Assembly (NCBI GenBank): GCA_963734525.1
Contig: CAVTHI010000009.1
Span: 67,429 to 131,428 of the forward strand
Direction: 5' to 3'
DNA length: 64,000 nt
DNA from: an uncultured archaeon
GTDB taxonomy: Archaea; Micrarchaeota; Micrarchaeia; Anstonellales; Bilamarchaeaceae
Under the pieces are notes generated by a model, which ran no database searches, was not told where the DNA came from, and saw only the letters and a list, made by a program, of their open reading frames with translations. The translations under genes were made by a program, and so were the position numbers. This document shows positions 29,512 to 47,311 of this stretch, piece after piece (position 1 is the first letter of the stretch; each line of letters begins with the position of its first letter).

Positions 29512-32016
29512 ATGGCTGAGGTCCAACTTAGCGGAAACAGGTTAGTCGTCGTATGCAGGGGAACGAGTCGCTCGACTGGAGTGACAATCGACCCCAGCCA
29601 GCCCGACCAGATTGAAGCTGCGGTGAGGCGCGCCATCAGCGCCGCCGCGCCGTATTTCTACGGAATCGGGGAGGCGCAGGGGCGCGAGGTCGAGGCAATC
29701 AACGCGTCAACGGCAGCGTCAGCCATAAGGAGGAGCGTGGCCAGGTCCCAGCCGGCAGCACAGCCGACTGCACCTCCGGCTCCGACGCAAACAGCGCCTC
29801 CTGCAAGGACCGCACAGCCAGCGGCTCCGCCTCCGGCGAGGACAATGCAGCAGGCGGCACCCCAGGCGCCCGCACCGCCGAGGACCGAAGGAAGGGCCGA
29901 GGCGCCCGCCGCCCCCGCAAGGGATACTGCGGCAACGCGCGGAAGCGGCTCGGGAAGGAGGGGCAGCAGGACCGCGGAAGCGACGCCGCGCCCGACAATC
30001 ACGCTCGTATGGCTGGACCTGCAGCTGCGCGATTCGCGCCGCGACGACCGGCGCGCGCAGGCCGCGGCCAACCTCCTGCACTCGAACAGCAGGTTCGTGG
30101 AGACGTTCCTCGACCCCGGATTGCAGAGGGGAGTCGAGCGGACGGACGCGCAGAAGAGCGTGACCATCAGCATCTTCAACCAGCTTTACCAGATTCCGAG
30201 CTTCAGGCTATACCTCTCGTCGATGGCCGCCCAGCAGCAGGCGCTTCCCGAGCGCGACCGCGTGTTCTCGGAGTTCGTCACGCTCCAGGCGTTCCTCACC
30301 GAACCCGGACGCGGCGAGCAGCTGAGCGCCCAGGCAGAATCCCGCATCATATCCGCGGCAGATTTGTACATCAGGTATTTCCTGCTCAATTTCGTGGCGG
30401 CGAATTCCGACTATTCGAGATACCGCGAGGAAATCCTCCAGCTCCCGACGACGGCATGGAGGCTCCGGAACGTGGAGGGCGCAAGGACATTCCAGCCCAC
30501 GACCGGGCGCGCGCCGAGCGACCTCGACCGCGCCGCGCTGATGAGGCTGTATATATCAAGCCCGATGGACGCCGACACCGTGACATGCGCCTCGCTTTAC
30601 ATGCGCAGGTGGTTCATGGAACACCCCGAGAGGGGCAACGGGAGGAGCCAGTCGAGGATATCGCAGTGGAGGGCCCCGGAAATCATCCAGCCCGAGCAGA
30701 GGGCGGATGCGACTGCACAGCCGGTCGCCCAGCCTTCCGCGGTGCCGGCGCAGCCGGCGGCGACCACGGTCGTTCCGCGCGTGGGTATCATCGGCGACTC
30801 GATAACGGCGGGCGGAAGATACGGGAGGACGCTCCGGACCACGCTGCGCACGACGTCCCCGGAGGCTGTCGTCGATTCATACGGCGTCCAGAACGAATCC
30901 ATTTCGACAATCCGCGGCAGGTTCAGGCGCGACATCCTGGACCACAGCCCGGCCTACAACACGGTGGTCATACAGGGCGGCATCAACGGCATCGAGGGCC
31001 TCAGCGTGATTGACGCCGAAAGTTCGTTCACGAGGATGATAAGCGATGCGAGGGGGCGCGGCATGAAGGTCGTGCTGCTGACGATAACTCCGTGGGCGGG
31101 CTACAGCGGCTCGACGACGGAAGCCCAGCGCAGGACGGCTGAATTGAACACCTGGCTCCGCTCGCAGGCGCAGGCCGACGGCAGCGTGGTTGTGGTCGAC
31201 ACGTCCGCGCTCGGCGAAGGGAATCCGCCAAGGCTGCGCGCAGCGTACGACAGCGGCGACGGCCTGCACCCCAACGACGCGGGCAGGGATTTGATAGCCC
31301 AGCGGATTGCGCAGGCCGCGTTCGCAAGGGCTCCGACCGCGACCGAAACGAGGACCGCGCTCCAGGATTTCGCAGACAGGAACTGGAGGTCGCTTCCGGC
31401 GGAGATTTACCGCCACGCCCAGGGAGGGAACCCGGCTGGCTTCATAACGCTTACGAGGAACCTTCCGGCGGGCGAGACATCGTTCGAAGGCGCGCTCCGG
31501 ACGCTCAGCCGCGACGACATACCCCGCGCATACGACAGGATTTTCAACGAATACCTGCATACGGACCGCAGTTTCCTGGATTTCTGCAACACCTGGCGCG
31601 AAGGCGAGACGCGCCCGTACGAGGGCGTGGCACTGGCGTCCGTGACGATGAGCGCGAGCAGCTCGCCTACCGACCGCAGGCTGGTGGTGCGCGCAATCCA
31701 GGCATACCTTAATTACACTGCGGGCAGGACGGGCGAGGACTGGTACAGCAGGCTGCGCGACGATTTCCGCATGATGAACCGCGACGTCCTCGGTCTCACG
31801 CGCGACAACCTGGACGTGAACGGGCTCGAGGACGTGCGCACGCTCGCCGCAGTCGCGGTCTACAGCTGGAGGAAGGGACACCGCAGCGAGGCGGTCGGCG
31901 CCTGGGCGACGTCGCTCAACATCACGCCCAGGACAACGCCCCCGGCCCAGCCGGTGCAGCCGGTCGTGCCTCCGGGCCAGGACGGCCAGAGGAGAAGGGT
32001 CATCCACCCCGGCTGA
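29512..32016 (+). CDS. G3: 834-aa protein with an SGNH/GDSL hydrolase domain
   Basis: AAGGAG lies upstream. Pro/Ala-rich linker at 29745-29995. SGNH blocks: VGIIGDSITAGG (I), VVIQGGINGI (III), GDGLHPNDAG (V) at 30775-31330. The flanking regions are unrecognised. Confidence 0.85.
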   Translation: MAEVQLSGNRLVVVCRGTSRSTGVTIDPSQPDQIEAAVRRAISAAAPYFYGIGEAQGREVEAINASTAASAIRRSVARSQPAAQPTAPPAPTQTAPPARTAQPAAPPPARTMQQAAPQAPAPPRTEGRAEAPAAPARDTAATRGSGSGRRGSRTAEATPRPTITLVWLDLQLRDSRRDDRRAQAAANLLHSNSRFVETFLDPGLQRGVERTDAQKSVTISIFNQLYQIPSFRLYLSSMAAQQQALPERDRVFSEFVTLQAFLTEPGRGEQLSAQAESRIISAADLYIRYFLLNFVAANSDYSRYREEILQLPTTAWRLRNVEGARTFQPTTGRAPSDLDRAALMRLYISSPMDADTVTCASLYMRRWFMEHPERGNGRSQSRISQWRAPEIIQPEQRADATAQPVAQPSAVPAQPAATTVVPRVGIIGDSITAGGRYGRTLRTTLRTTSPEAVVDSYGVQNESISTIRGRFRRDILDHSPAYNTVVIQGGINGIEGLSVIDAESSFTRMISDARGRGMKVVLLTITPWAGYSGSTTEAQRRTAELNTWLRSQAQADGSVVVVDTSALGEGNPPRLRAAYDSGDGLHPNDAGRDLIAQRIAQAAFARAPTATETRTALQDFADRNWRSLPAEIYRHAQGGNPAGFITLTRNLPAGETSFEGALRTLSRDDIPRAYDRIFNEYLHTDRSFLDFCNTWREGETRPYEGVALASVTMSASSSPTDRRLVVRAIQAYLNYTAGRTGEDWYSRLRDDFRMMNRDVLGLTRDNLDVNGLEDVRTLAAVAVYSWRKGHRSEAVGAWATSLNITPRTTPPAQPVQPVVPPGQDGQRRRVIHPG

Positions 32017-32179: not shown

Positions 32180-35100
32180 ATGTCAGGGCCAAGGTTGAAA
32201 TGGAATACGGAATTGTCCGAGAGGGCGGCCGAGTATGCGAGAAGGCAGGCACAGGCGGCCATGTCGAATATCCCGTTCAAGCTCAAGGCCGCGCTGATTG
32301 GGGGCATGATGAGCATCGGCGAAGCGGCCGGTGCAAGCAATATAAACAGCGGCGGGGGAGATGGTATAATGGCCTTCCAGAAGATGCCCGGGAGGAGCGG
32401 CGGGTTGAAAGAGGCGGGGGAAACGCATGCCGTTGCGCCACATGAGTCCATCCGCATTGCCGTGCAGCAGGCGCAGGTCGCCACGGAGAAGCTGAGGGAG
32501 TTCATGCTCGGCGGGAACCAGGCCCGCGCAGAGGAATTCCTCAGGATTTACGACGACTGGACGCAAAGGGAGGAAAGCGAGTCCGGCGAATTCAACGACG
32601 CGTTCATGGTGGCGCTGCGGGAAAGGGTGATGAACGACCCCGAGCTGGGGCCGATATTCAACGCTTACTGGGGCGCGAGGACGACCGAAGACGGCGGGCT
32701 CGACCTCACGCAGCTTTGTGTCAGCGTGAGCGAGGTCTTCAGGGCGGCCGCATCCGGAAGCGCGGAAGCCATCGAGGAGCTACGCAGGCAATACGGCGAA
32801 TTCGCGGGGGCATTCGTCGACGGCATAGTGGCGGTCTATCAATCATCGCAGGGCGCGGAGGAAGGCATCGCGCAAGCCGTCCCCGTCCCGGTGAGGACCG
32901 AGGACCAGACCGAAACGGACGCGGGCCGCGCAGCAGATTTCATCAGGAATTTCGCGCGCTCTAGCGACGAGGAGGACAGCCGCGGCCACGACCAGGCATA
33001 TTACCTCGGCCAGCTTATGGGGATACTCGCGAGGTACCGCGACGGCGACGGATTCGATTCGTCGTTCCTTGGCGCGCTCCTGCGGAGGCTGGGGGAGCGC
33101 GAGAGGGCCGTGCTCGAAGGGTTCGAGAGAAGGGTGGGAATAGGCGAGGGCGAATCGCTGACATTCTCAAATTTCGAGCGGTTCCTTGAGGATGTGGGGA
33201 TTGTCTCGCGCGAGCTGCGCGCCGGCGAGCAGCAGTCCGTCAACCTTGCCAACCTGCGCACGCGTTACGGGGATGCGTTCGTGACTGCTATGCAGAGGCT
33301 GTTGCCCGCCCAGGAGCCGATGCACCTTGCCACTCTTTCGATATTACGGGAGAAAATAGACGCCATTCGAGCGTTTGCAAGGGAGAGGCATATCGGCCTT
33401 TCGACGATGCAAATCAGCGGCAGGACGCTTGATGAATGGGAGGGGGAGCTCGAGGAACTGGAGGCGCAGGGCGAAGACGCGGACCAGGAAGCGATAAACA
33501 CCATGAACGGCAGCCTGCCCTCCGAGAATGCGCTCTTGCGGGAGGAGCGCGAGGCGCGGAGGATATCCTCCAGGCTCGACATACTCATCAACGGGACGCG
33601 CCCGTTCTACTATAATATAGGGGAAAGCTGGCTTTCGATGGCACGGAGCCTCCTCATGCAGGCCGACAACCGCGGGGCCGGGGCGGCATCCGGCGGATTC
33701 TTCACGATACTGTTCACGCGGGATTTAGGGGAGAGGGACATGCGCCTCGAGGACGTGGTGAGCACGGGCGTGGACGAGGAAAGCGGGGAGGAGACGAGCG
33801 AGGTCAGCACGGGCGTCCGCTCCACCATCGAGAGGATTTCCGACGCGATTCCACTACTGCGGAGCATCAGGCTCATGGTGAACGGCGGCTTCCGCGAATC
33901 CGACATGGACAGCACGCGGAGGATGATAAGCGAATTGCCGGATGATTTGTTCCCGCAGGAAGTGCGTGACGCGATGGAACACGGCTTCGAGCAGACGGCG
34001 CGGTCTGCGGCGGAAACAGGATACGACGAGGGCACGATAAGGAGCGCAATCACGATGGTGAGGCGCGCGTGCAGCGGACTTGGCCCGGAAATCCAGGACA
34101 GGCTCCTCATGGGGACCGTGTCGAGCTGGCATAACGACACGGGAGAGAGCGAGGAGGGCGCATCGAGGCTGCAGGCATTGGACGATGCGTATTCGCATAT
34201 CGCATCCGGCGCGGTGTTCGGCGAGTTCCAGGAATTCACCGGCCTGCTGGAGGAAAGGTTCCGGATGGAGGCCGAGTCAGCGCAGACCGGGCTCCCGGAT
34301 GAAACCGCATTCGACGGCATCCTCATCCGCGACGCGCGGACCAGGCTGACGAACGCCTCCGAGATTTTCCGCAACAGCCCCCTCGAGATGAGGTTCGCCA
34401 TTTTCCAGCTGTTCCAGGGCCAGCGCCCGTCCGGGGAGCTTTCAAGCGAGGACATCGGGCGCATCGCCGCGGTCATAAACGGGCTGGAAGGGATGCCTTC
34501 GGCATATGCCGCGCTGCTCATCCAGCGCGCCGGCCCGACGCTCTTTGCGGACTATGATGCGCAGAGCATAGAGGTCATCCTCACGGCAATCAGCTCATAC
34601 AGCCAGCCGCTCATCAACGCGGGCATGTACCGCGAGCTCGAGGAGTATTACGAAGGCATCGGCGACCGGATAGCGGACCTGTTCGTCGACGTGGTCGCGC
34701 TCAGGAACGTCGCGCGCGAACAGGGCGGCATGCTCCGCGACGTGCGCGTGAGGCTGCCTGGGGACAGGCCGGATTTCGCGGACCTGTACCTGCCTGCGAG
34801 CAGGATTTCTATCAGCCTTCCCAAAAGGATTTACGAGCGCTGGGTGTCGGAGGGCGCGGTCGTCCGCGTCACCCAGTCTCCGGACATCAGGGAGTCGCCC
34901 GCCCCTTCGCCGGGCATGGGCGCAATCGAGCGGGCGTTCTTCGGCCGCGATGCCATCCATATGGAGATGAACGTCCCGATGCCGCTCCTTTCGCTCCCGC
35001 TCGTCATCGAGAACCTCGGCGCCCTGCGCCCGCGCTATGCGATTCCTGTCGAGGAGATGAACGAGCTCTGGGCCGACGCCTCGGGGGCGGTGCATTCCGT

Positions 35101-37096
35101 CACGGGGCCGGACCAGGATGCGATGGACTATTCTTTCGGAGAAGCAGTCGGCCAGCGGGGCGGCGGAAGGGACTGGTCGCAGAGCGTCTACGGCACGGGC
35201 GGCGACGGCCAGCAGCGCATTCTCGGCAACCTCAGCTGGAACAACCAGCCCCTCGGCGGCATGACGCGCGAGGGCGAGCAGAGGAGCACCACCATGACGA
35301 GGGGCAGGTTCGACGTCGACGTCGAGGGCTCCATGCTCGAGCGCATGATGCTTTCCATGGATGCGACCGCGCCTTCGGGCTCGGACACCGCGGTATATTT
35401 CCTGAAGGAAGGCGACACGTACCGCTCATATGTCTTCCAGAGGTTCGGAGGCGGAAGCTTCGGGCTCGTGGATGTCAGGACGTTCACGGAAAACGAGGCG
35501 CGGATGTTCTACGAGCGCACGTTCGAAAGCCAGCCCTGGCGCCTCTACGGCGGCGCGAGAATCAGCGGCGGCGACGCGGGAGGCGCGCGCGAGGACTGGA
35601 TGGCGGCGATGGACGGGGCGGTCCTGTTCTCAGGGCTCCCGAGCGATGAGGAGCAGTTCCAGGGCGCAGGCGCCGCGGTCCAGGTGGGCACCGGCGGCGG
35701 GGCCGCCGATTACGAGCACACGCGCGGACAGCGGAGCGGCCTCATGGGCGCTTACATAAATCCTGAAGAGCGCGAATATTACGTCGGGCGACTCTATCTT
35801 AGCGCGCTCGAGCAAAGCGCGGAGAGGCCGGGCGTCGGCGTGCACGGCGAGTTCCAATATTTCAGGGCGAGGAGAGGGACTATCGACGCGTTCCTCGGAA
35901 GCAGGGAGGTCGGCGAGGAAGGCTCCGCGGCCGAGGACATAGAAGGCGGAATAATCGCGTCGTATCTCGGCGAAGGCTGGTGGGGCGGGGGGCGCGGCGG
36001 ATACATGATGAGCCAGATGATAAGGCCGCAGGCTGAGGGAACCGTGCCCGAGCTTGCGTTGACGCGCCAGCAGGTTGCGGGCGGTTCGGTGTATGGCGGC
36101 ACGGATTTGCGCGTGCTGGCCCTGACCGCGGCCGCATCAGCGGTATGGACGCAGGAGCTTGAGGACATGCCCGCGGACGCGACGGAAGGGGAATGGCAGC
36201 AGCACATGGCCGCGGCGCTCAGCATGTACGTCCCGGCTATCTATAGCAGGCTTATGGGCGGCGGCGTCCACGAGGAGGATTACTGGACCGGCGGCCACGG
36301 AATCGTGTCCGTTCTTTATCCGCTCGAGTGGCTGAGCGAACTGAGCGCGTTCGGAATCTATCTCCAGGGCGAAGGGGAGCATGAAGGCGAAACGCTCCCG
36401 ATTGTCGGCGCGAACGCCGAGGTGGTGCCAGGCCGCGGGACAAGGTTCAGGGTGCAGGCTTTCGGCGTGATAGGCGCCGGGGGCGGCGCTGACTTGCGCG
36501 CGTTCTTCGGGACCGAATCCGGATTCGATTTCTCGGTCAACGGCGTCTATACCGAGGGCATGGACACCGTGGGGCAGGGCATATCCGGCGCGCTGAGGCT
36601 GCGCCTCGGTGAGGACGAGGACGAATACAGGGTCAGGCTCATACTCGCAGGGGGATACTCCGAGCAGGAGGTCGCCGGGGAGACTGTTGTCAGCGGCGAA
36701 GGCGCGGGAATCGTCCGGGTGAATCTCGCGGAACCAGGGACCGAGCCGACCGTGACGGACATCCATGTGGGCGTGAGCGGCATCCACACCGAAGTGACGC
36801 CGGTGAGCCCGGACGAGGAGGCCGTCAGCGCGGACCAGGTCGATGCGCAGGCGGGCGTGACTGTCGGGACCGCGGACTGGAGCCTCGACGCGCACGCGGG
36901 CGTGCAGTACTGGACTGCGGAAGGGGACGAGAGGCTGTATATAACCGTGGGCGGGGAATACCAGCTCTGGAACGGCGAGGGCGACATCCAGGGGCTCAGC
37001 CTCGGGGGGAGTTTCAACGGGCTCGTCTATGAGGAGGGCGAGTCTAGGGCGAGCGATTACAACTTCACGATTAATCTGAGATTGCTGAACATGTGA
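32180..37096 (+). CDS. giant protein G4 (1638 aa), unknown function
   Basis: GGGGGA lies about 9 nt before the ATG. Starts MSGPRLKWN. The N-terminal ~170 aa are homologous to G5. Acidic helical middle. The C-terminal ~220+ aa are Gly/aromatic-rich with alternating hydrophobic residues, ending ...YNFTINLRLLNM. Confidence 0.85.
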   Translation: MSGPRLKWNTELSERAAEYARRQAQAAMSNIPFKLKAALIGGMMSIGEAAGASNINSGGGDGIMAFQKMPGRSGGLKEAGETHAVAPHESIRIAVQQAQVATEKLREFMLGGNQARAEEFLRIYDDWTQREESESGEFNDAFMVALRERVMNDPELGPIFNAYWGARTTEDGGLDLTQLCVSVSEVFRAAASGSAEAIEELRRQYGEFAGAFVDGIVAVYQSSQGAEEGIAQAVPVPVRTEDQTETDAGRAADFIRNFARSSDEEDSRGHDQAYYLGQLMGILARYRDGDGFDSSFLGALLRRLGERERAVLEGFERRVGIGEGESLTFSNFERFLEDVGIVSRELRAGEQQSVNLANLRTRYGDAFVTAMQRLLPAQEPMHLATLSILREKIDAIRAFARERHIGLSTMQISGRTLDEWEGELEELEAQGEDADQEAINTMNGSLPSENALLREEREARRISSRLDILINGTRPFYYNIGESWLSMARSLLMQADNRGAGAASGGFFTILFTRDLGERDMRLEDVVSTGVDEESGEETSEVSTGVRSTIERISDAIPLLRSIRLMVNGGFRESDMDSTRRMISELPDDLFPQEVRDAMEHGFEQTARSAAETGYDEGTIRSAITMVRRACSGLGPEIQDRLLMGTVSSWHNDTGESEEGASRLQALDDAYSHIASGAVFGEFQEFTGLLEERFRMEAESAQTGLPDETAFDGILIRDARTRLTNASEIFRNSPLEMRFAIFQLFQGQRPSGELSSEDIGRIAAVINGLEGMPSAYAALLIQRAGPTLFADYDAQSIEVILTAISSYSQPLINAGMYRELEEYYEGIGDRIADLFVDVVALRNVAREQGGMLRDVRVRLPGDRPDFADLYLPASRISISLPKRIYERWVSEGAVVRVTQSPDIRESPAPSPGMGAIERAFFGRDAIHMEMNVPMPLLSLPLVIENLGALRPRYAIPVEEMNELWADASGAVHSVTGPDQDAMDYSFGEAVGQRGGGRDWSQSVYGTGGDGQQRILGNLSWNNQPLGGMTREGEQRSTTMTRGRFDVDVEGSMLERMMLSMDATAPSGSDTAVYFLKEGDTYRSYVFQRFGGGSFGLVDVRTFTENEARMFYERTFESQPWRLYGGARISGGDAGGAREDWMAAMDGAVLFSGLPSDEEQFQGAGAAVQVGTGGGAADYEHTRGQRSGLMGAYINPEEREYYVGRLYLSALEQSAERPGVGVHGEFQYFRARRGTIDAFLGSREVGEEGSAAEDIEGGIIASYLGEGWWGGGRGGYMMSQMIRPQAEGTVPELALTRQQVAGGSVYGGTDLRVLALTAAASAVWTQELEDMPADATEGEWQQHMAAALSMYVPAIYSRLMGGGVHEEDYWTGGHGIVSVLYPLEWLSELSAFGIYLQGEGEHEGETLPIVGANAEVVPGRGTRFRVQAFGVIGAGGGADLRAFFGTESGFDFSVNGVYTEGMDTVGQGISGALRLRLGEDEDEYRVRLILAGGYSEQEVAGETVVSGEGAGIVRVNLAEPGTEPTVTDIHVGVSGIHTEVTPVSPDEEAVSADQVDAQAGVTVGTADWSLDAHAGVQYWTAEGDERLYITVGGEYQLWNGEGDIQGLSLGGSFNGLVYEEGESRASDYNFTINLRLLNM

Positions 37097-37149: not shown

Positions 37150-37578
37150 ATGGAATGGACCGGAATACGATTATACAAGGCGGAGGCGGAATGCGTGTCC
37201 GACAGGAAGTTCGAGGGAATCGCGGCATCGCTCGACATCACCGGAATCGGCATGACCGGGGGCGGCGCGCTTAAAATCGATTTCACGCACACGACGAAAT
37301 ACCAGCCCGGAATCGCGATGATACGCTTTTGCGGGTTCGCGCTCGCGAAGGGGAAGAAGGCCGAGCTCGATTCGCTGCTTGCGGGGTGGAAAAAGGACAG
37401 GTTCCTGCCCAAGGACGTGTTCGAGACGCTCGTGAACCTCGCGAAATACTCCGCGGAGACCAACGGGGTGCTCGTGGCCAAGGCATTGAACATCGCACCG
37501 CCGCTGGTCGTCCCGAGGGTCCGCCTGGCAGAGCCGCAGCCCCGGATTCCGGCCCAGAAGGCCGGAAAAAAGAAGTAG
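37150..37578 (+). CDS. small conserved protein, possible SecB-like chaperone fold (paralog of 46865-47311)
   Basis: The track starts at GTG 37093, overlapping the G4 stop. ATG 37150 has GGGGGAG about 9 nt upstream and aligns with the paralog. Shared pattern: ALKIDFTHTTKYQP.IAMIRFCGFA... / GVILEFTYAVDYKP.IGSLRMTGEAF..., then NGVLVAKALNIAPPLVVP / NSIFLLRPFNLLPPFMPP, and a Lys-rich tail. Function is inferred only. Confidence 0.65.
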   Translation: MEWTGIRLYKAEAECVSDRKFEGIAASLDITGIGMTGGGALKIDFTHTTKYQPGIAMIRFCGFALAKGKKAELDSLLAGWKKDRFLPKDVFETLVNLAKYSAETNGVLVAKALNIAPPLVVPRVRLAEPQPRIPAQKAGKKK

Positions 37579-37670: not shown

Positions 37671-37916
37671 GGTTCCAGCCCCAGCAGTTGGGGGCGGCAT
37701 CGGGAGTTTTCAACAGAATTTCATATACACGAATTTCCTTTTTGAGTGACAACTCTTTATATTCTTTTCTGACCAATATACAACTCGGACAGACACAATA
37801 CTCGGTGGCAGAAGATTCCGGGCCATTGCAGCGCAAGAGCGGCCCGGAACGGAAAGGATTTCATACTAACTCAGAACCCGCCAGCGTGATTCGGGTTCTC
37901 AAGGAAGGATGCTCAT

Positions 37917-40900
37917 ATGGCCGGTCCGAGGTTGAAGCACGGGGAGGAAAAGGAGGTGCCAGAAGGCGCGCCGTCCGAACGCCGCAGCAGGCCGAATTCG
38001 GCAGCCTTTTCACGGCCAGGGTGGCGCGATTGGCCACCGCGACGCTTGCCGGAATTATGACGTTGGAAGGCATAACTAATTTAAATATCCTTAGTCCTAA
38101 TGTTGCCATGGCACAACCGAGGCGGAAGGGGGGCGCGGAACCAGAAGAGATCACAAGGCTCCAGGCACAGGCCGTGGATGCCGCAAATGCTTTTCGGGAT
38201 TATATCGTAGGAGGGGACCCGGCCAGGAGGCAGTTTTTCTGGACCACCTACAACCAGGCGTTCGGCGGTGCCACGCTGCACGACAACTCCACGTTCATGA
38301 CGAAGCTCTTCGAGGAGCTCGACCGCATCGGCAGGGACCCAGGGGTCCAGCCGTTGCTCGCCGCATTCACGGCGGACCGGGGAAGCCTCTTCGGCTTCCT
38401 CTGGAGCAATCCGGTGCATTTCACGGATTTCATCGATACCACTTACAACATCAGGCAGAGGCTCGAAGGGGGCACGGCGAGGCCCGCGGACATAACGAGG
38501 CTCTCCCGGCAGGTCCGCGAATCGCAGGGCAGGCCGGCCAGGGCGGACACCCAGGTCGGGCGCGTCCGCGCGGCGATGGAGGCCAACACGAGCCTCACCG
38601 TAGAAGACGCGGTGAGGGCGGAGCTGGAGAGGCCGAGCCGCGAGGAGGCGACGGCGAGATACGGCGACAACCTGACGCGCGAAGTGATTGCGCGCTCCCC
38701 AGGGCAGTTGGCAATCAGGGCGGCTGTCGCACTGCGCGACTTCATACTCACTGGGGACGAATCCAAGCGCACGCTTTTCCGCAGCATCTGGGACGCGAAC
38801 ACCACCCAGGCGTTCACCGACGCGTTCACAGCGGAATTCACGGCGAGGATTTACCGCGACAGCGGCTCGGGCCTCGCGGCGATTGCGCAGGCTTACAACA
38901 CCAGGCACAGCGGGACCGACCCGATAGCGTTCGCCACAATGATTACGCAGCTCTATGCGGCGGCGGGCTCGCGCACAGACACCACGCGCGAAATAGAGCA
39001 GATGCGCACGGCCGAAGGCACGAACGTCGTGGACCCGCTCCTGGCAATAGTGGCAAGGGGCATGGCGGGCAGGGCGATAACGCTCATGCGCGACGTGCTC
39101 GAGAACGGGACTCCGGCGTCACGGGACCAGTTCGTCGCTATATTGAACGGCAGGCTGGCGGTCATTGCGAACAACGCGGTCCAGATGCCGAACGTCGAGA
39201 ACAACGACGTGTTCTGGAACGAGTTCACGCGGCTTTACACCGCGGAAATCGGGCAGAGCAGCCGCCTTGCGACGCTGGTGCGGAGCTTCCAGAGGAATAT
39301 ACTCCCGATTGCAATCAGGGACATCTACACGGAGCTTGCGAGGGCGAGCCCGGACACTGCGAGGCTGAATGCGGATTACGGGCCTGACCTTGTGGGGCTC
39401 ATCGCGTCCAACACAGGCACGCTTTCGTGGATGGCGCGCCCGGATTCGGACTTGTCCTCGGAAATCACGAGGAGGTCGCGGGCGGAGGACCCGGCCGCGG
39501 TCCGCGTAAGCGGCGTCCGCCTGGCTCAGGGCGTTTCCAGGCCGGCGGCGCTTAGGGAGACTTATATCGCGCTCGTGCAGGAAAGGGCGGTCACGCGCAC
39601 GGTCGAGGCGCCGGACGTGACGGCCATACTCGAGCGGAATTTCGATTCGCTTTCATACCTTGCCGGAACGCCGGCCCAGGTCCAGAGGGAGATTGAGCGG
39701 AGGGCGAGGGCCAGGCCGCCGGATGCGGTTGCACAGCAGCTGCTCGCGCGCTTCCCCACAAACGCCGGAGCATCGCTCTCGGCCGCGTACACCGCGCTCC
39801 GCGACGCGCGGACGCGCAGGGCTGCGCTCGTAACGCAATACGGCCAGGAATTCGTGGACATCGTGGCGGCGAACCTCGACGGACTCCAGTGGGTCATGAG
39901 GCCCGTGGAAGAGATAGACAGCCAGATGCGCTCCAGGCGCGACGACGCGTTCGTCCGCTCGGTCAACACCAGGATAGGATATTCGGTCGGCACGCTCGCG
40001 CATGGCCTCCGCGACATCTATACCGAGTTCGGCCGGCCTACGCCGGACCGCGCAAGGCTGGACCAGACTTACGGCTCTGAACTCGTGACGCTCGTGGCGA
40101 CCAACCGCGCGAGCCTCGGATGGCTCGGAAGCGACCTCGCCACGGTGGAGAGGACGCTCCAGGACCCGAGCACGGACGCAACCACGCGCTCGCTGCAGCT
40201 CAAGCTTTACAGTTATACGCCGGTCCAGCTCGTTTCCGCAATCGCCCGCGCAAGAAGCGCAATCACCAGGCGCGGGCTCGCCCTTGCGGATGCGACAGAC
40301 GCATACGGCACGGTCTTCGTAGGCCCGGTCGTTTCGCGCCAGGCGGTCGTCACCCCGTCAATCTCGCCAGAGGTTGCGCAGCCCCTCCAGCAGGTGCTCG
40401 AATCCCGCGCGCTCGGCATAGTGCGGCAGTTCGAGGAAATCGACAGGCAGCTCCGCTGGCCCATCCTCGAGCCGGCGCGCGTGCTCATCCAGGAGCGCAT
40501 CAGGCTCTGGAGGCAGGAGAACGACGCAATCAGGCTGGAGGCCAGGCAGACGCAGGACCCGACCGCGCTTGCGGCGCTCGAAACACGGCAGGCGACGCTC
40601 ATCAACTCCATGCTCACGCCCGCAGAAATGCGCCGCTCGGTCGAAATGGCGTTCGCCATGGTGCACCTTGCGGAGACAGGCGGCGATATGAGCCGCGCGC
40701 CCAGCCTCAGCGACGTCACGACGACGGACCAGGACATCGGGACATTGAGGAGGCTCTCGGAGTGGTACCGCGGGCTGAGCACGACGGGGAAGCAGCCGGT
40801 GGTGGGCGAGGTCGTCTCGTCCGTGCTTTACCGCGCCGACCCGAACCTGTACCAGTTCATAACCGGGCTGTCCGAACCCGGATTCGTCAGCGCGATCTCG

Positions 40901-42661
40901 CGCGTATATTCGCTCACAAGGAGAATCGGCGGGGACAACAGGCAGACGCTGGTCGCCCTTTACGGCGAGCAGTTCGTGGCGCTCGTGGAATCGCAGGCGC
41001 CGCACCTGCGCATCCTTGAAAGCCCTTCGGTGATGGCGAACCCCGCGGCGACGATGGCAAGCCTCAGGCGTGGCGAGAACGAGCTTTACGCGAGCATAGT
41101 CGTCCGCGTCTACAGGGCCGTGTCGAGCCCGGCCGCAGGCGAGGACAGGGCGAGGATGGAGAGCCTCTTCGGGCCCGAGTTCGTGGCCGCAGTCGTGGCG
41201 AACCAGGCGCAGATGACAGCACTCGGAACGGGCACGGCAGGCCTTCCGGAGGTCCAGGCGCTCCCCGAATCCGTCAGGCGCGCACTCGCGGCCGCGTATC
41301 CGGCGGCTTACCAGAGAAGCATCGGGGCACTTGTCCGCGGATTCCGCAACCAGGAGGACTGGATGTTCAGGAGCATGTCCGCGGTGTACGCGGCCCTGCG
41401 CGAAAGGCCGGCCCGCGGGGCTTCGGCTGATGCGACGCAGGCGTACGCACAGCGCGTCAGGGAGCTGAATGCCGCATACGGCGACAGCTTCGTCGCTACT
41501 ATAAGCGAGAACATGGCGCAGTTCGAGTTCCTCCAGCGCCCGACTTCTTCGCCGAGGGACCTGGCCAACATCCCCCCCGAGCTCCGCGAACGGCTCAACA
41601 CCACTTTCGAAGGCGGGCCTGCGGTGGGCAGGGCGAGCTTCATGACGAACTTCCTGCGCGTATACGAGCAGCTGCCGAGGGTGTACACCCAGCTGCGCGG
41701 GGCGCTCGCGTTCTCGAACCCGACGGACACGCTGCCGACGACGCTCGCGAACGCCATCGCCTATTACCGCCAGCAGTTCGGAAGCAACAACTACCTCTTC
41801 AACCAGTACATCAACCTGGACCTCCTCAGCAGGAACATCCAGCGCATCGCACGCAGGTACAACGTCCAGCTTCCGCCGAACATCGCGGACGGCATCGATT
41901 CGCCGGAGGAGCTCTCGCAGTTCATCAGCACCGAAACCGGGAGGAGCCTGCTTGCGGCGGGAAGGACGTTCTATAACGATACCCTGCTCCCGCTGTACCA
42001 GCAGCAGAAGGTCGGACAACAACTTCCACCCGACGACCGGCGATTACACCGACGCGAACGTGACGAACCTGGTGAACCAGCTTTCCATCCTCGACGCGCT
42101 CTACCTCGGCGTGGCGCTCGAAAGCGTTTCGGGAACCGACAGCGCGTTCCAGCGGTCGGCCGCGACGGCGACCATGAACGCGATTCTCGTCATCTCGAAC
42201 CGCGACCCGTACCTCGTAGGGCCGTTCCTCCTCCAGGTGCTCCCGGCTATCCTGTCATGCTCGCAGGACGAGCGGACCATCGTCGCCGCGATAGAGGCGT
42301 TCAACGGGATATTCACCCAGAGGTACGAGACGGGAACGAGGGAAATCGCATACAGCAACGCCCTCAACCGCAGGTATTTCCTCGAGGTGTTCCAGCGCAT
42401 CGGCGACAGGCTCCCCGAGGTCACGAGCTCCTACGACCACAGCAGGCTCGAGGACGAGCTGCGCCTCACCCCGGAGCCCAGGACCGACGAGGGATACATG
42501 AGCCCGCTGCTCTACCGCTACAGGCCGGGCTTCTGGCAGGGCGACGGCCTCGAGGCGCTTCCGACGATGTACGGCCAGCAGGGCTCGCCGATACGCCTGC
42601 TTCCGAGGCCCACGATGCCGACAAGCCCGTTCCTGCCGGTTCCGGGAGGATTCACGATTGA
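37917..42661 (+). CDS. giant protein G5, N-terminal part (start ATG 37917; frame change near 37960-37980; credible to about 42013)
   Basis: AAGGAAGGA lies 8 nt before ATG 37917, which opens MAGPRLKHGEEKEV..., parallel to G4 MSGPRLKWN. That frame stops at 38058-38060. The tracked 37688 frame then reads RRAVRTPQQAEFGSLFTARVARLATATLAGIMTLEGITN..., homologous to G4. After LYQQQKV (about 42013) the tracked frame becomes Arg/Pro junk. Confidence 0.8.
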
Positions 42662-45600
42662 TTCGGGCGCGAGCGACATATTCAGCAGCATGTACGACCA
42701 GCTTCGGCCGCCGGTGGAAAGGATGTTCCGCCAGCGCGTGCCTGCCAGGTTCAGGATAGGCGCGCTCGGCGCATCGACGATTATACGCAGGATAAACCAG
42801 CTCTTCGGCCCGATGCCGGTCGATTACAACGATTACTGGCTTAGCGCCTTCGGCGAAGCCGGGGCATACTACGCGCACCAGGAGAGGGGGCCGACCTCGA
42901 CGAACAGGGGCGGCCTTGCAGGCGTCGGCGGAGGCCGCACGATCAGCGGCGGCGAAAGGGCGACCGCCAGGTGGACGCGCGACCAGACCGAAACCGCGAT
43001 TCCGGCCGGCGAAGGCCAGGCGCGGAGCGCCACGTCCACGACTTCGGATACCGTGGACATCAACGCATCGGCAGTCAGGCTGCCGCCCCCATTGTCGGGA
43101 CCGGTGCCGCTTCCGCTCCTGGGCGTCGTGCCGTACGACCTGTTCAGGATGGGCGAGGGAACCGGCTCGGCATACGTGGCGAGGCCGCAGTCCGAAGTCC
43201 AATCCGAGCTCGAGCGCAGGCGCGGAACCGGGGACCAGGTCGTCGCGAACATATTCACGCTCAGGCCGAACAACACCGCGGCGGCCCTTCTCGACACGTA
43301 CACCGAACTGCTCAAGACCGCGCCGGACCGCACTAGGCTGGAGCGGGATTACGGAAGGCCGTTCGTCGAGCTCGTCGCTGGCAACAGGCAGTACCTCAAC
43401 TGGGTCCTGTCGCAGTCACCCGAGATGGGCGTCGGAATACACCGCGCGAGGCAGGAATTCCATTACGAGAACTCGAGCACGACGCAGACCACCGCGCCGC
43501 CGGCAGGGCAGGCCGGGGACACTACGGTCACGGACACGCAGACGAGGGGCAGGACGAGGGGGCTCCTCGAGACCTACCAGAGGATTGCGCGCCAGTCCCA
43601 GACGGACATGCTCCTTTTCGTCGCGGGCGAGCACGTGCCCGAGCTTTCGTCGGCAGGCGGTGCAACATCCCAGCGCGGGGAGGACAGGCTCAAGACGAGG
43701 CTGTACTTCGTCACGCGCGAAGGCGACGTCTACCAGCTCGCATACGGCCTCGACACGAGGGCCCAGCTCCTCAACTACCTTTATGCCGGGGCGAACACCC
43801 AGCAGTTCCTCGCATCGGCGAGGGCTGTCGGGCGGCAGATGCTGACGGGCGACTCGGCGGCGGCCGGTTTCGACGGCGCGGCGGTGGGGTTCACCCTTCC
43901 GCGCTCGGGCGGGGATTCGTTCTCGTCCCTTGCGTTCGGCCAGCTTGTGCGCAGCATGAGGTACATGGACCCGGTCCACGCCGAGCAGGCCGCGGGCATG
44001 GCTGTCACCAGCCTCCTTGCGGACCGGAGGCAGAGGGACGTATATGCGGCGTTCTACCGCGGGGCGGAGATGATAACCGTCGACCAGCAGGACCGCCAGC
44101 ACATAACCGACACCAGGTTCGCTGAAGGGACCGGCGAGGTCATGTGGAGGCGCATGCGCATCGACCCCATGGCCTACCAGGCCGAGATAAGGGCGGCCGG
44201 CGGATACCCGGCGACCGTGGCGGCAAGGGGCCGCCTCGAATGGCGCCCCTCAAGATACCAGACCAACGCGCTCGGCGTCACGGCGGCCTACTCTCATATC
44301 GACCTGCTGCGCGAGATGAGGGCCGCGGGCGCGGATGCCAACGAAATTTACGGCGGATTGCAGACCGTCCTTACGAGCCTTTACGGCTGGTCCGAGGACA
44401 CGGCGAGGGACACCGGATGGCTCGCCGCGGGGAGCTACATGTACGCGCGCATGGAGAACTACACGATGCAGAATCCGGACGGCACCTACCGGACGCTGCC
44501 TTCGGGCCCGGAGGGGAACCCGGAGCAGCATTACGCGAGTGCCATGTTCATGTACTGGGCCCAGCGCCACGGCATACTCATGGGCGCGCAGAGGGTGCCG
44601 GGATGGACGAGGATATACGACAGGATAGACCAGGCCATGAGGCAGATACAGCAGAACCCGGCCAACGAGGCGACGATACTCGAAGGGCTTTCGCGCGCGC
44701 TGCGCGATGATTTGCGCAGGGACATCTGGCGCTTCGCCCTCGCATACGGGTATGACGGCGAGCGCGTCAGGATATACACCGTCGGAGGCGGCCAGTACGT
44801 CAACGATGAAACCGCATACGGGAACCTGTACAGCATGTTCATCTTCGGCAGGCCTGCGGCGGGATACGTGGACATCCTCGGCCACGCTTACGGGTATTCG
44901 CCCCTCGTCATCAGCGAGAACCCGGGCACGGCGGGGCAGTTCACCGTGACGCGCGGCAGGCAGACGCCGTTCGTCGACCTGTACACGGGGTTCGGCATCA
45001 TGGACTGGCCGAGCATCAGCCTGCAGAGGTACCAGAGGGAAGTGGCGATAACGAGCGCGCCGAACATCGCAGGGGCGGTGCGCGACGCCTACCGCGAACT
45101 CGGCGGCATGAGGAACAGGACGCGCCTCGTCCGCGACTACGGCGAATCCCTGGTCGCGCTGGTCGAGGAAGGCCGCGAGACGCTCAGCTGGATGATAAGG
45201 CCGGCCGCGCAGGTCCGAACCGAGATGCAGACGCGCCTCGGCCAGGACGACCCGATAGTGCTGTCGTTCCTCAACCTGCGCTCAGGACGGGAGAGCGGGG
45301 CGACGACGGTCAGCGCAGAGGACGCGGCCGCGCTCGTGGACATATTCACCGAGCTCCGGAAGGCCACGCCGAACCGCGAACGGCTCGAAACGAGGTATTC
45401 CCGCGAGCTCGTGGACCTTGTCGAGAGGAACAGCACGGACCTCGACTGGATGCTCCTCCCGGCAGACCGCATGAGAAGCGAATTCACGCGGAGGGCGCAG
45501 GCGAGAGGCTCGGTCGAAGCGAGGATGGCCGAGGTGTCATTGCCGGCCCCGCCCACCCAGGCGTCGCTAACAGGGCCCGAGGTCAAGACGCTCATGGAGC

Positions 45601-46709
45601 AGAACATGCTCGACGTGCTTGTCGGCGCAACAGGCGCGGATTCGCGCGTGGGCCTGAGCCCGGAGCGCTACGACATCCTGCTCGGAAGCCACCTCGGCAG
45701 CCCGGCAGGGAGGAGGGACAGGGCGACGACGTTCTACGTACTGCACACGCCGGTCTCGGAGCGCTCGGAGGCGAGGGGCTCGCTGGTCATCGGCGACCAG
45801 CAGGACCTCGACGAGTGGATGCGCCACGGCCACCAGATAGGGCGCGGCATTTCCCGCCTCGAAGTCGCGAGAACCGGAAGCGATTATACCTTCACGTTCT
45901 CGGGCGACAGGAGGCTTAGGGCGCTTACGGCCGAACGGTTCGTGGGAGGGATTACCGTCCCGCTCCGCGAATCCGAATTCAGGGTCGGAAGCAGCTGGAC
46001 GGTCGGCGGGCTGATGCAGGTCCTCCAGGACCACAGGCTCGACCTCCTCGCAGGCGCCATGTACGGAAGGCGCGAATACGGGAACGAGCGCTGGGACCAG
46101 TGGACCGTCACCGTTTCGGGCAGGCTGCAGGGCACGAACACCGCGACCGTCAGCGAGCAGTGGTACGGATACCTGTTCTTCAACCAGGCCACCAGGCAGG
46201 TGGTCGCCGCGAGCGGGGATGTGTTCAACAACGCCGAGGAGATGAGGCAGGTGTGCCAGACCCTCGGCGGGGCCGGGTGCAACAGCCTCTCGGACCTTTC
46301 GAGGACCACGGGCGGCGTCGGCCTCCAGTGGGCGCGGACGGACGTCGTCACGGGCGACCGGATGAGCTTCCACTTCTTCTTCGAAGGCGGCGTGGAGACC
46401 TACCGGCCGTGGAGCGGCGCGGGCTCAGGCACCGTGGACACGGGCGGGGGCAACACCGCCGCGGTGACAATCAACCCGCGCGACAACGCGTTCGTATTCC
46501 GCACCGGCGTAGGGTTCAACTACACCCAGCAGAGCCCCAACAGCACGATACCGAACATCTACTCGCTCACCTTGGGCGCGCAGAACGGCTCGTGGCCCCT
46601 CATACCCGGGGACGTCACGAGGCCGGAATACCTGCAGTCCTGGGGCACGTCGATGGAAACGGCCATACCGGGCTGGTCGCTCATGCTGCACGGCCGCGTG
46701 CAGTGGTAG
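41952..46709 (+). CDS. giant protein G5, C-terminal part (credible from about 42013; whole G5 about 2930 aa)
   Basis: From DNNFHPTTGDYTDANVTNLVNQLSILDAL... the composition is protein-like. Contains further ~50-aa repeats (43296-, 45087-, 45342-) and a beta-rich Gly/aromatic C-terminus ending ...GWSLMLHGRVQW. Changing GG to G at about 42011-42016 would fuse it to the previous frame. Confidence 0.8.
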   Translation: MRREGRSITIPCSRCTSSRRSDNNFHPTTGDYTDANVTNLVNQLSILDALYLGVALESVSGTDSAFQRSAATATMNAILVISNRDPYLVGPFLLQVLPAILSCSQDERTIVAAIEAFNGIFTQRYETGTREIAYSNALNRRYFLEVFQRIGDRLPEVTSSYDHSRLEDELRLTPEPRTDEGYMSPLLYRYRPGFWQGDGLEALPTMYGQQGSPIRLLPRPTMPTSPFLPVPGGFTIDSGASDIFSSMYDQLRPPVERMFRQRVPARFRIGALGASTIIRRINQLFGPMPVDYNDYWLSAFGEAGAYYAHQERGPTSTNRGGLAGVGGGRTISGGERATARWTRDQTETAIPAGEGQARSATSTTSDTVDINASAVRLPPPLSGPVPLPLLGVVPYDLFRMGEGTGSAYVARPQSEVQSELERRRGTGDQVVANIFTLRPNNTAAALLDTYTELLKTAPDRTRLERDYGRPFVELVAGNRQYLNWVLSQSPEMGVGIHRARQEFHYENSSTTQTTAPPAGQAGDTTVTDTQTRGRTRGLLETYQRIARQSQTDMLLFVAGEHVPELSSAGGATSQRGEDRLKTRLYFVTREGDVYQLAYGLDTRAQLLNYLYAGANTQQFLASARAVGRQMLTGDSAAAGFDGAAVGFTLPRSGGDSFSSLAFGQLVRSMRYMDPVHAEQAAGMAVTSLLADRRQRDVYAAFYRGAEMITVDQQDRQHITDTRFAEGTGEVMWRRMRIDPMAYQAEIRAAGGYPATVAARGRLEWRPSRYQTNALGVTAAYSHIDLLREMRAAGADANEIYGGLQTVLTSLYGWSEDTARDTGWLAAGSYMYARMENYTMQNPDGTYRTLPSGPEGNPEQHYASAMFMYWAQRHGILMGAQRVPGWTRIYDRIDQAMRQIQQNPANEATILEGLSRALRDDLRRDIWRFALAYGYDGERVRIYTVGGGQYVNDETAYGNLYSMFIFGRPAAGYVDILGHAYGYSPLVISENPGTAGQFTVTRGRQTPFVDLYTGFGIMDWPSISLQRYQREVAITSAPNIAGAVRDAYRELGGMRNRTRLVRDYGESLVALVEEGRETLSWMIRPAAQVRTEMQTRLGQDDPIVLSFLNLRSGRESGATTVSAEDAAALVDIFTELRKATPNRERLETRYSRELVDLVERNSTDLDWMLLPADRMRSEFTRRAQARGSVEARMAEVSLPAPPTQASLTGPEVKTLMEQNMLDVLVGATGADSRVGLSPERYDILLGSHLGSPAGRRDRATTFYVLHTPVSERSEARGSLVIGDQQDLDEWMRHGHQIGRGISRLEVARTGSDYTFTFSGDRRLRALTAERFVGGITVPLRESEFRVGSSWTVGGLMQVLQDHRLDLLAGAMYGRREYGNERWDQWTVTVSGRLQGTNTATVSEQWYGYLFFNQATRQVVAASGDVFNNAEEMRQVCQTLGGAGCNSLSDLSRTTGGVGLQWARTDVVTGDRMSFHFFFEGGVETYRPWSGAGSGTVDTGGGNTAAVTINPRDNAFVFRTGVGFNYTQQSPNSTIPNIYSLTLGAQNGSWPLIPGDVTRPEYLQSWGTSMETAIPGWSLMLHGRVQW

Positions 46710-46864: not shown

Positions 46865-47311
46865 CTACTTCTTCTTCACGGGCTTCTCCTTGGCAATGAC
46901 CTTGGCCTCGGTTGCAATCAAAGGAGGCATGAAGGGCGGGAGCAGGTTGAAGGGGCGGAGCAGGAATATGCTGTTCATGCCCGCGTTCGCGTTTATCATG
47001 TTGATGGCGGTCGCGCCGAACTCCATCGGGACGATTTTCGCCTTCTTGTATTCGACGAGCATCTTCTTGAGGTTCTCCGGGCTGTCGCGGCAGAACGCCT
47101 CGCCCGTCATCCTCAGCGAGCCGATGTCCGGCTTGTAGTCGACGGCATAGGTGAATTCGAGTATCACGCCGTCCGGCGCCTTCTGGGTGATTTTGTCGAC
47201 ATTGATGTTGATGTCGATGTTCGCAGGAACGCCGTCCTTTGCCTTCTTCACTTCGCCTCCCCGGAAAATAAGACCCATGACTTCAAGCATATTTATCCCG
47301 TCCATAACCAA
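46865..47311 (-). CDS. small conserved protein, possible SecB-like chaperone fold (paralog of 37150-37578)
   Basis: 148 aa, Lys-rich tail KEKPVKKK like its paralog (AQKAGKKK), shared beta-strand-like and LLPPF/IAPPL segments. Convergent with G5. Confidence 0.7.
   Translation of the reverse strand: MVMDGINMLEVMGLIFRGGEVKKAKDGVPANIDININVDKITQKAPDGVILEFTYAVDYKPDIGSLRMTGEAFCRDSPENLKKMLVEYKKAKIVPMEFGATAINMINANAGMNSIFLLRPFNLLPPFMPPLIATEAKVIAKEKPVKKK

Follow-up and report, generated by a model that had tools for sequence, protein, structure and literature searches.

Transmembrane β-barrels of the outer-membrane type are seen as a defining trait of bacteria with two membranes and of the organelles that descend from them, and their assembly is thought to require the Omp85 machine. 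In our literature searches we found no description of such barrels in the DPANN or in other archaea. Here we analyze G4, a giant gene of 1638 codons plus a stop (32180..37096, + strand) that lies in a 64,000-nucleotide stretch of DNA from an uncultured archaeon of the Micrarchaeota (family Bilamarchaeaceae; GenBank assembly GCA_963734525.1, contig CAVTHI010000009.1, positions 67,429 to 131,428). This whole stretch, hereafter the window, supplies all nucleotide coordinates given below unless another locus is named, and is part of a 1.15-Mb metagenome-assembled genome (MAG) in 9 contigs. All evidence on the G4 tail is computational, and the description that it supports best is a structural one: the end of G4 is a meander of ~28 amphipathic strands, conserved and two-sided, with a predicted local geometry like that of large outer-membrane barrels.

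The described systems with which G4 can be most closely compared are the SlpA/OmpM proteins, the lipopolysaccharide (LPS) translocon LptD and the type Va autotransporters. In SlpA/OmpM (PDB IDs 7zgx, 8agd and 8ae1; Deinococcus radiodurans) a long helical region is followed by a very large, single-chain C-terminal barrel of ~28-30 strands. G4 has a probably helical body and a predicted barrel-like module of similar size, and SlpA 7zgx gave the best query template modelling score (TM-score) of all our structural matches, although at 0.39 it falls below 0.5. However, these proteins carry an N-terminal SLH domain that binds the cell wall and a coiled-coil stalk, whereas G4 has neither an SLH match nor sequence similarity to them, and it resides in an archaeon for which no outer membrane is known and in whose genome Omp85 has no match. 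The 26-strand LptD (5ixm, 5iv8 and 4rhb) yielded the lowest Foldseek E-values (6.6e-4 to 9e-4), and the likeness to G4 lies in a large barrel, predicted in our case, a similar number of strands, and a non-barrel domain located N-terminal to the barrel. On the other hand, the TM-scores are 0.2-0.3 and we found for G4 no match to the β-jellyroll N-domain, no LptE partner, no Lpt pathway and no sequence similarity. Type Va autotransporters have in common with G4 an N-terminal export signal (a candidate one in G4), followed by a ‘passenger’ of great length and by an amphipathic β module at the C-terminus, with an aromatic end in most members of the G4 family. They differ in that their barrels have 12 strands with a helix running through the pore, and in that their passengers are mostly β-helices. 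G4, by contrast, has ~28-29 predicted strands, no helix in the module, a probably helical body and no match to the Pfam Autotransporter family, and Omp85, the BamA family responsible for inserting barrels of this type, has no match in its genome.

To model the fold of the tail we used AlphaFold2 with a 15-sequence alignment covering residues 1040-1638. The resulting model has a mean predicted local distance difference test score (pLDDT) of 72 and a predicted TM-score (pTM) of 0.52, with blocks of 75-90 over residues ~1159-1590 (about 80 there). Between residues 1120 and 1637 it contains 29 consecutive antiparallel strands of 8-17 residues each, arranged as an unbroken up-and-down meander in which the loops between strands span 2-13 residues and no helix longer than 3 residues intervenes. 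The first two strands (1120-1150) are of low confidence, and the model is good from residue ~1159 (window 35654). A single-sequence AlphaFold2 run on residues 1180-1638 was uninformative (pLDDT 34), and the helices that it placed at 1309-1358 become strands in the alignment-based model. Together with the structural matches, the strand faces and the variation in loop length described below, these data delimit a β-meander module at residues 1120-1638 (35537..37093, + strand). An earlier reading of the DNA made from sequence only had picked out 36440..37093 (+ strand), whose first nucleotide is exactly codon 1421 of G4, as a Gly/aromatic, β-rich module of ~220 residues built of short strands. The family alignment and the strand table show that the pattern is real and conserved, but that residues 1421-1638 supply only 12 of the predicted strands, the final ones of a larger module, such that the size was underestimated by more than half, and the predicted strands are long rather than short.

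A Foldseek search of the PDB with this model returned outer-membrane or mitochondrial membrane β-barrels as 49 of the 50 best matches, mostly with probabilities of 0.9-1.0. These include LptD (lowest E-value, 6.6e-4), the Campylobacter jejuni MOMP, Deinococcus SlpA (7zgx, highest query TM-score), MtrB, the FimD/PapC ushers, SprA and VDAC1, as well as OmpG, the Occ porins, BtuB, FhaC and maltoporin. The sole non-barrel among them was ApoB100 (rank 43, probability 0.38), and no Ig-like or soluble-sandwich fold appeared in the best 50 PDB matches. In a viral structure library the matches were all weak, a few of them being phage-borne porins. The check proposed by the sequence-only reading, AlphaFold on the tail, thus gives an ordered region (pLDDT ~80 over the β region) with no known Ig-like or soluble-sandwich fold among its neighbors, so that none of the outcomes named as refuting that reading was seen. 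As for the suggestion that the tail resembles a β-barrel or β-sandwich anchoring domain, which would be unusual in an archaeon, the predicted fold and its neighbors are barrel-like, but the TM-scores to solved barrels are low (0.16-0.39). Closure of the sheet, a strand number of ~28-29 and an outward-facing hydrophobic surface are accordingly put forward here as tentative features.

The composition of the tail fits a sheet of alternating residues. Measured in 60-residue segments, the period-2 hydrophobic moment of the last ~250 residues is 0.9-1.25, versus ~0.5-0.9 over most of the remainder of G4, the period-3.6 moment is low (0.54-0.79), and the same residues contain 18-23% Gly and up to 13% Phe, Trp or Tyr. 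Most of the first 900 residues of G4 display the opposite pattern. Gly-richness begins already near residue 960-1000, and the Gly/aromatic β-rich region near residue 1120, or with confidence at ~1159 (window ~35537/35654). Acidic residues (Asp plus Glu) make up 14.8% of the module versus 15.9% elsewhere in G4, and lysine is absent from the last 519 residues. The contrast that had been drawn between the tail and a helical, acidic rest therefore holds for secondary structure but not for charge, the acidic content being nearly equal. Nor is the tail pattern a product of chance, since it is conserved across ~23 relatives that are 20-90% identical. Within residues 1421-1638 the family motifs include G-x-Q-Y-W-x-x (1574-1580), and the final strand of G4 reads YNFTINLRLLNM.

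Further support for a barrel-like layout comes from the family alignments, with strand positions taken from the model for both the face analysis and the loop test. Across the family, hydrophobic residues make up 70-96% and charged ones 0-15% of one face of each strand, and the opposite face is polar, with many Arg, Asp, Glu, Gln, Asn and Ser residues. For the loop test we measured how the distance between successive strand centers varies among 22 relatives in a separately built MAFFT alignment. Loop-length variation alternates along the chain, with a mean standard deviation of 7.5 residues on the side opposite the C-terminus versus 2.3 on the C-terminal side (Mann-Whitney p = 2e-4, an indicative value only because the relatives are not independent). 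All large insertions, of up to ~90 residues, fall on the side opposite the C-terminus, and this two-sidedness extends over all 28 loops, which speaks for the assigned hairpins along all 500 residues. Outer-membrane barrels have short turns on the side of their termini and variable loops on the other, a feature shared by the G4 family. One insertion lies in the loop at G4 residues 1327-1339 (window ~36158-36196), where four relatives (P0010, P0013, P0014 and P0015) carry ~90 additional, probably helical residues (…FYSQN..L...L.Q..AN.QARQ.LY.LL.S…); because P0014 has a second copy further upstream, this insertion looks like a mobile sub-domain in a far-side loop.

The C-terminal residue was also considered, since the β-signal at the C-terminus of outer-membrane barrels has hydrophobic residues at every second position and an aromatic one at its end. 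Seventeen of 23 family members end in Phe, Trp or Tyr, versus 5.9% of the open reading frames (ORFs) of at least 250 residues in the G4 genome, and Phe is also the last residue of five relatives that were found later (four loci and P0027). Family members typically close with ...L-x-L-x-G-T-F, in which the third residue from the end is Gly, Ala or Thr and not hydrophobic. G4 and its nearest relatives end in ...LLNM, and a 66%-identical relative in ...ALNY. Judging from these alignments, the terminal aromatic is a feature of the family that was lost in G4 and its nearest relatives.

A word-based search identified three relatives of G4 that are 90%, 66% and 45% identical. When residues 960-1638 were taken as the query of a full HMMER profile search, 1.84 billion representative proteins yielded 21 proteins (17 at E <= 1e-10), mostly of 1500-2200 residues, with four shorter ones that are apparently fragments and none that is annotated. 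Nine more loci came from scanning the contigs of genomes and metagenomes (two from metagenomes), one further protein was found separately, and a protein search with a 19-sequence alignment returned close relatives only. The family thus numbers about 25 giant orphan proteins. Records with related loci bear the names ‘Candidatus Micrarchaeota archaeon’, ‘MAG: archaeon DeMMO3’, ‘uncultured archaeon LFW-283_2’ and ‘Candidatus ainarchaeum sp.’, and all named records are DPANN/Micrarchaeota MAGs. Family matches were detected in 20 of 401 sampled genomes of the phylum, 12 of 76 of the same taxonomic family and 6 of 28 of the same genus; the G4 family is rare, patchy and fast-evolving. The β module is present in all 23 aligned members, which share the motifs E-A-Y-Y-P-G-x-G-E-L-K-L, Q-x-D-x-Q-x-G and G-x-Q-Y-W-E, and each of the nine loci matches a hidden Markov model (HMM) of the module at E <= 1e-62. 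G4 itself has the attributes by which we define the family, namely a length of 1500-2200 residues, the C-terminal β module and the motifs P-x-A-Y-A-A-L-L, D-V-R-V-R, F-Q-G-A-G-A-A and T-R-G-G-R. The best-conserved stretch of the family is not the C-terminal end but the first strands of the module (window 35537-35900, residues ~1140-1240), with the motifs D-G-A-V-L-F-S-G, F-Q-G-A-G-A-A-x-Q, D-Y-E-x-T-R-G-G-R and Y-x-V-G-R-L-Y, and this high conservation suggests a functional site there.

Three parts of G4 precede the module. Comparison of family N-termini places a candidate signal peptide or N-terminal anchor at residues ~28-64 (32261..32371, + strand). Most of the complete relatives begin with a basic stretch, a 15-residue hydrophobic segment (Kyte-Doolittle 1.5-2.1) and the motif N-I-x-N...A-M-A-Q-P, an arrangement that is signal-peptide-like; G4 has a basic stretch, a weak hydrophobic segment, AALIGGMMSIGEAAG, and then N-I-x-N ... 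I-M-A-F-Q, which corresponds to the family motif. No further transmembrane-like segment was found in G4. Export of the family is likely on these sequence grounds. The gene calls of some relatives begin at the Met of M-A-Q. There follows an acidic, Lys-poor body of ~975 residues (32372..35296, + strand; Lys 0.77%, Asp plus Glu 15.9%), and residues 1-1000 are probably helical, as judged only by composition and helical moment. Finally, a conserved pre-barrel region defined from the family consensus (residues 1040-1119; 35297..35536, + strand) carries the motifs AP-x-G-A-D-T-A-x-Y-F and N-G-S-F-x-L-x-D and is modelled, at low confidence (pLDDT 31-60), as three strands and a helix.

The reading that we favor, and hold as quite possible while stopping short of calling it probable, is that the G4 tail is a conserved, barrel-like C-terminal anchor or pore module of an exported protein that contacts the host. 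The last ~480-520 residues would form one continuous up-and-down sheet of ~28 long amphipathic strands, of the kind that closes into very large barrels, and would serve as the anchoring or pore-forming end of a probably exported giant protein. At the interface between symbiont and host, the hydrophobic face of the strands would abut lipid or some other hydrophobic layer, with the polar, charged face lining a lumen. Both ends of the chain, along with the tight turns of constant length, would be located on the near side, the variable loops with their family-specific insertions on the far side, and the acidic body of ~1000 residues could act as a stalk. The layer involved might be either the envelope of the symbiont itself or the membrane of its host. 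Our data show the pattern of strands with its conservation and two-sidedness, and a predicted local fold, whereas barrel closure, export, membrane insertion and the layer concerned are inferred.

Several points weigh against an anchor or pore of this kind. The alignment behind the model is shallow (15 sequences), the pTM is 0.52, the five models span pLDDT values of 57 to 72, and AlphaFold may favor meanders for amphipathic sequences rich in Gly and aromatic residues. The TM-scores to solved barrels are low, with a large root-mean-square deviation, and neither single sequences nor profiles gave any match in Pfam, NCBIfam or the PDB at permissive thresholds, known barrel families included. G4 itself ends in Met (...NLRLLNM), and its own N-terminal hydrophobic segment is weak (Kyte-Doolittle 1.19). 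Furthermore, this genome, which is 53% complete by marker genes, has no Omp85/BamA match (PF01103), while control genomes with an outer membrane all match PF01103, and in the cultivated Ca. Micrarchaeum harzensis freeze-etching and cryo-electron microscopy (cryo-EM) reveal one membrane with an S-layer above it (bioRxiv 10.1101/2021.04.28.441871). The shallow alignment, the pTM, the spread among models and the uninformative single-sequence run, along with marginal Foldseek E-values (three PDB matches only among the best 50 at E <= 0.001), would suit a misleading prediction, whereby the tail is a fibrous, amyloid-like or other non-barrel β assembly used, for example, in oligomerisation or S-layer binding, and the matches reflect generic hairpin geometry. 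We regard this as unlikely, since pLDDT is ~80 over 430 residues, since the PDB neighbors are nearly all barrels, and since the strands of the model predict alternating indels in an alignment that was built separately, which would be unexpected if the hairpins were wrong. Possible, if somewhat doubtful, is a soluble or lipid-carrying β structure, i.e. a collapsed barrel, a two-layer sandwich or an open groove in which the hydrophobic face is buried or holds lipid; in its lipid-carrying version it would resemble the sheets of ApoB/vitellogenin or the grooves of AsmA/TamB and VPS13-type proteins and would serve the uptake of host lipids by the symbiont. DPANN archaea are presumed to depend generally on host lipids. 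A sheet that is flattened or open would account for the low TM-scores to round barrels, strands with a single hydrophobic face suit lipid binding as well as they suit a membrane barrel, ApoB100 is among the matches, this genome shows no match to a barrel insertase, and the cultivated relative has no outer membrane. Yet no TamB, AsmA, VPS13, ATG2 or LptA-type groove appears in the best 50 matches and the ApoB100 probability is only 0.38, strands of this length and regularity would be unusual in a soluble sandwich, and a strict alternation over 28 loops combined with a conserved terminal aromatic is typical of closed membrane barrels.

If the module does sit in a membrane, it could be imagined as the integral outer-membrane tether of Micrarchaeota that possess a true second membrane, in the manner of SlpA/OmpM. 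The layout of those proteins, their presence among the best matches (7zgx, 8agd and 8ae1, with 7zgx giving the highest query TM-score) and the conserved terminal aromatic all agree with this idea, as does early cryo-EM of ARMAN cells that was read as two membranes, a reading since revised (cited in bioRxiv 10.1101/2021.04.28.441871). We nonetheless deem it very improbable: Ca. Micrarchaeum harzensis has an S-layer over a single membrane and an S-layer is likewise visible in ARM-1 tomograms (bioRxiv 10.1101/2024.05.20.594898), we found no Omp85 match and no SLH or other tether domain match, and the patchy occurrence of the family, which was detected in 20 of the 401 genomes sampled from the phylum and in 6 of 28 from the genus, would be odd for a core component of the envelope. 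A bolder proposal, which we consider distinctly unlikely, is that these are genuine archaeal transmembrane β-barrels made without an Omp85 insertase, placed in an unrecognised outer lipid layer or, more attractively, in the membrane of the host cell. Were the latter true, a ~28-strand barrel ~5 nm across, as estimated with the standard barrel-radius formula, would provide a conduit or an anchor for a symbiont tapping its host. More broadly, a two-sided module of ~28 strands would point to an unrecognised envelope layer, to a barrel that inserts unaided into the host membrane or to a large lipid-binding sheet in organisms that need lipids from a host, each of which bears on the ways in which DPANN symbionts attach to their hosts and feed on them, and the module is a defined domain of ~500 residues that can be expressed and tested. 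The ARM-1 tomograms also contain a 21-nm ‘barrel-shaped structure’ (bioRxiv 10.1101/2024.05.20.594898), which we set aside as a G4-type barrel given that a single 28-strand barrel would be ~5 nm wide.

Because the sequence-only reading had proposed a comparison with the C-terminus of the neighboring giant gene G5, we examined this gene as well. In the window G5 (37688-46709) is split over two frames, with a likely ATG start at 37917 in the third frame, and it is one uninterrupted ORF in two relatives (L001:6092-14431, 2779 called residues; L009:15572-24547, a 2992-codon open frame) whose G5 tails are 97% and 72% identical to that of the window. The frame breaks are thus attributable to assembly errors or recent damage. 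The C-terminus of G5 is also β-rich and ends in a conserved Trp, but an hhalign comparison of the G4-family module with 3 G5 sequences gave a probability of 0.4%, so that the two tails are not detectably homologous. Likewise, when the module HMM was run over every six-frame ORF of this genome, no paralogue emerged, the G5 tail included. Residues 96-219 of G4 are weakly similar to residues 340-454 of G5 (BLASTP E 3e-4).

G4 and G5 belong to a block of giant genes whose members are located at 15555-19766, 20327-~29345, 29512-32016 (G3), G4 and G5 (~37917-46709). The G+C content of this block is 0.61-0.68 versus 0.55-0.63 in the flanks, and AT skew is strongly positive on the coding strand over window 16000-46000; a Lys-poor, Gly/Ala/Arg-rich protein composition may be a partial cause. 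The sole recognisable enzyme domain of the block is a GDSL/SGNH hydrolase domain in G3 (Pfam Lipase_GDSL_2, E 3e-18, residues 427-592). A bacterial origin of the contig was rejected on the strength of archaeal-type genes near G4, which include FtsY, geranylgeranyl reductase and ThyX, with Trm56 adjoining the homologous locus in L001, and of the occurrence of relatives in Micrarchaeota-named records.

Directly downstream of G4 lies a small Lys-rich ORF of 142 residues (37150..37578, + strand), which together with a second one (46865-47311, − strand) brackets G5; both are ~142-148 residues long and neither has a Pfam match. In L001, the 66%-identical relative of G4, the gene order is the G4 homologue, a 134-residue gene, the 2779-residue G5 homologue and a 141-residue gene on the opposite strand, and the position of the small ORF between the two giant genes is therefore kept. 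These small proteins could be partners or chaperones of the giant ones. With regard to lysine, G2, G3, G4 and G5 (window 20327-46709) contain only 0.25-0.72%, whereas long ORFs of the genome have ~3.5%, G1 has 4.3% and the small ORF that follows G4 has 11%. Among the relatives of G4 lysine is similarly scarce in some, such as P0011 (0.4%) and P0026 (0.0%), and stands at 4-8% in others, from which we take lysine avoidance to be specific to certain lineages.

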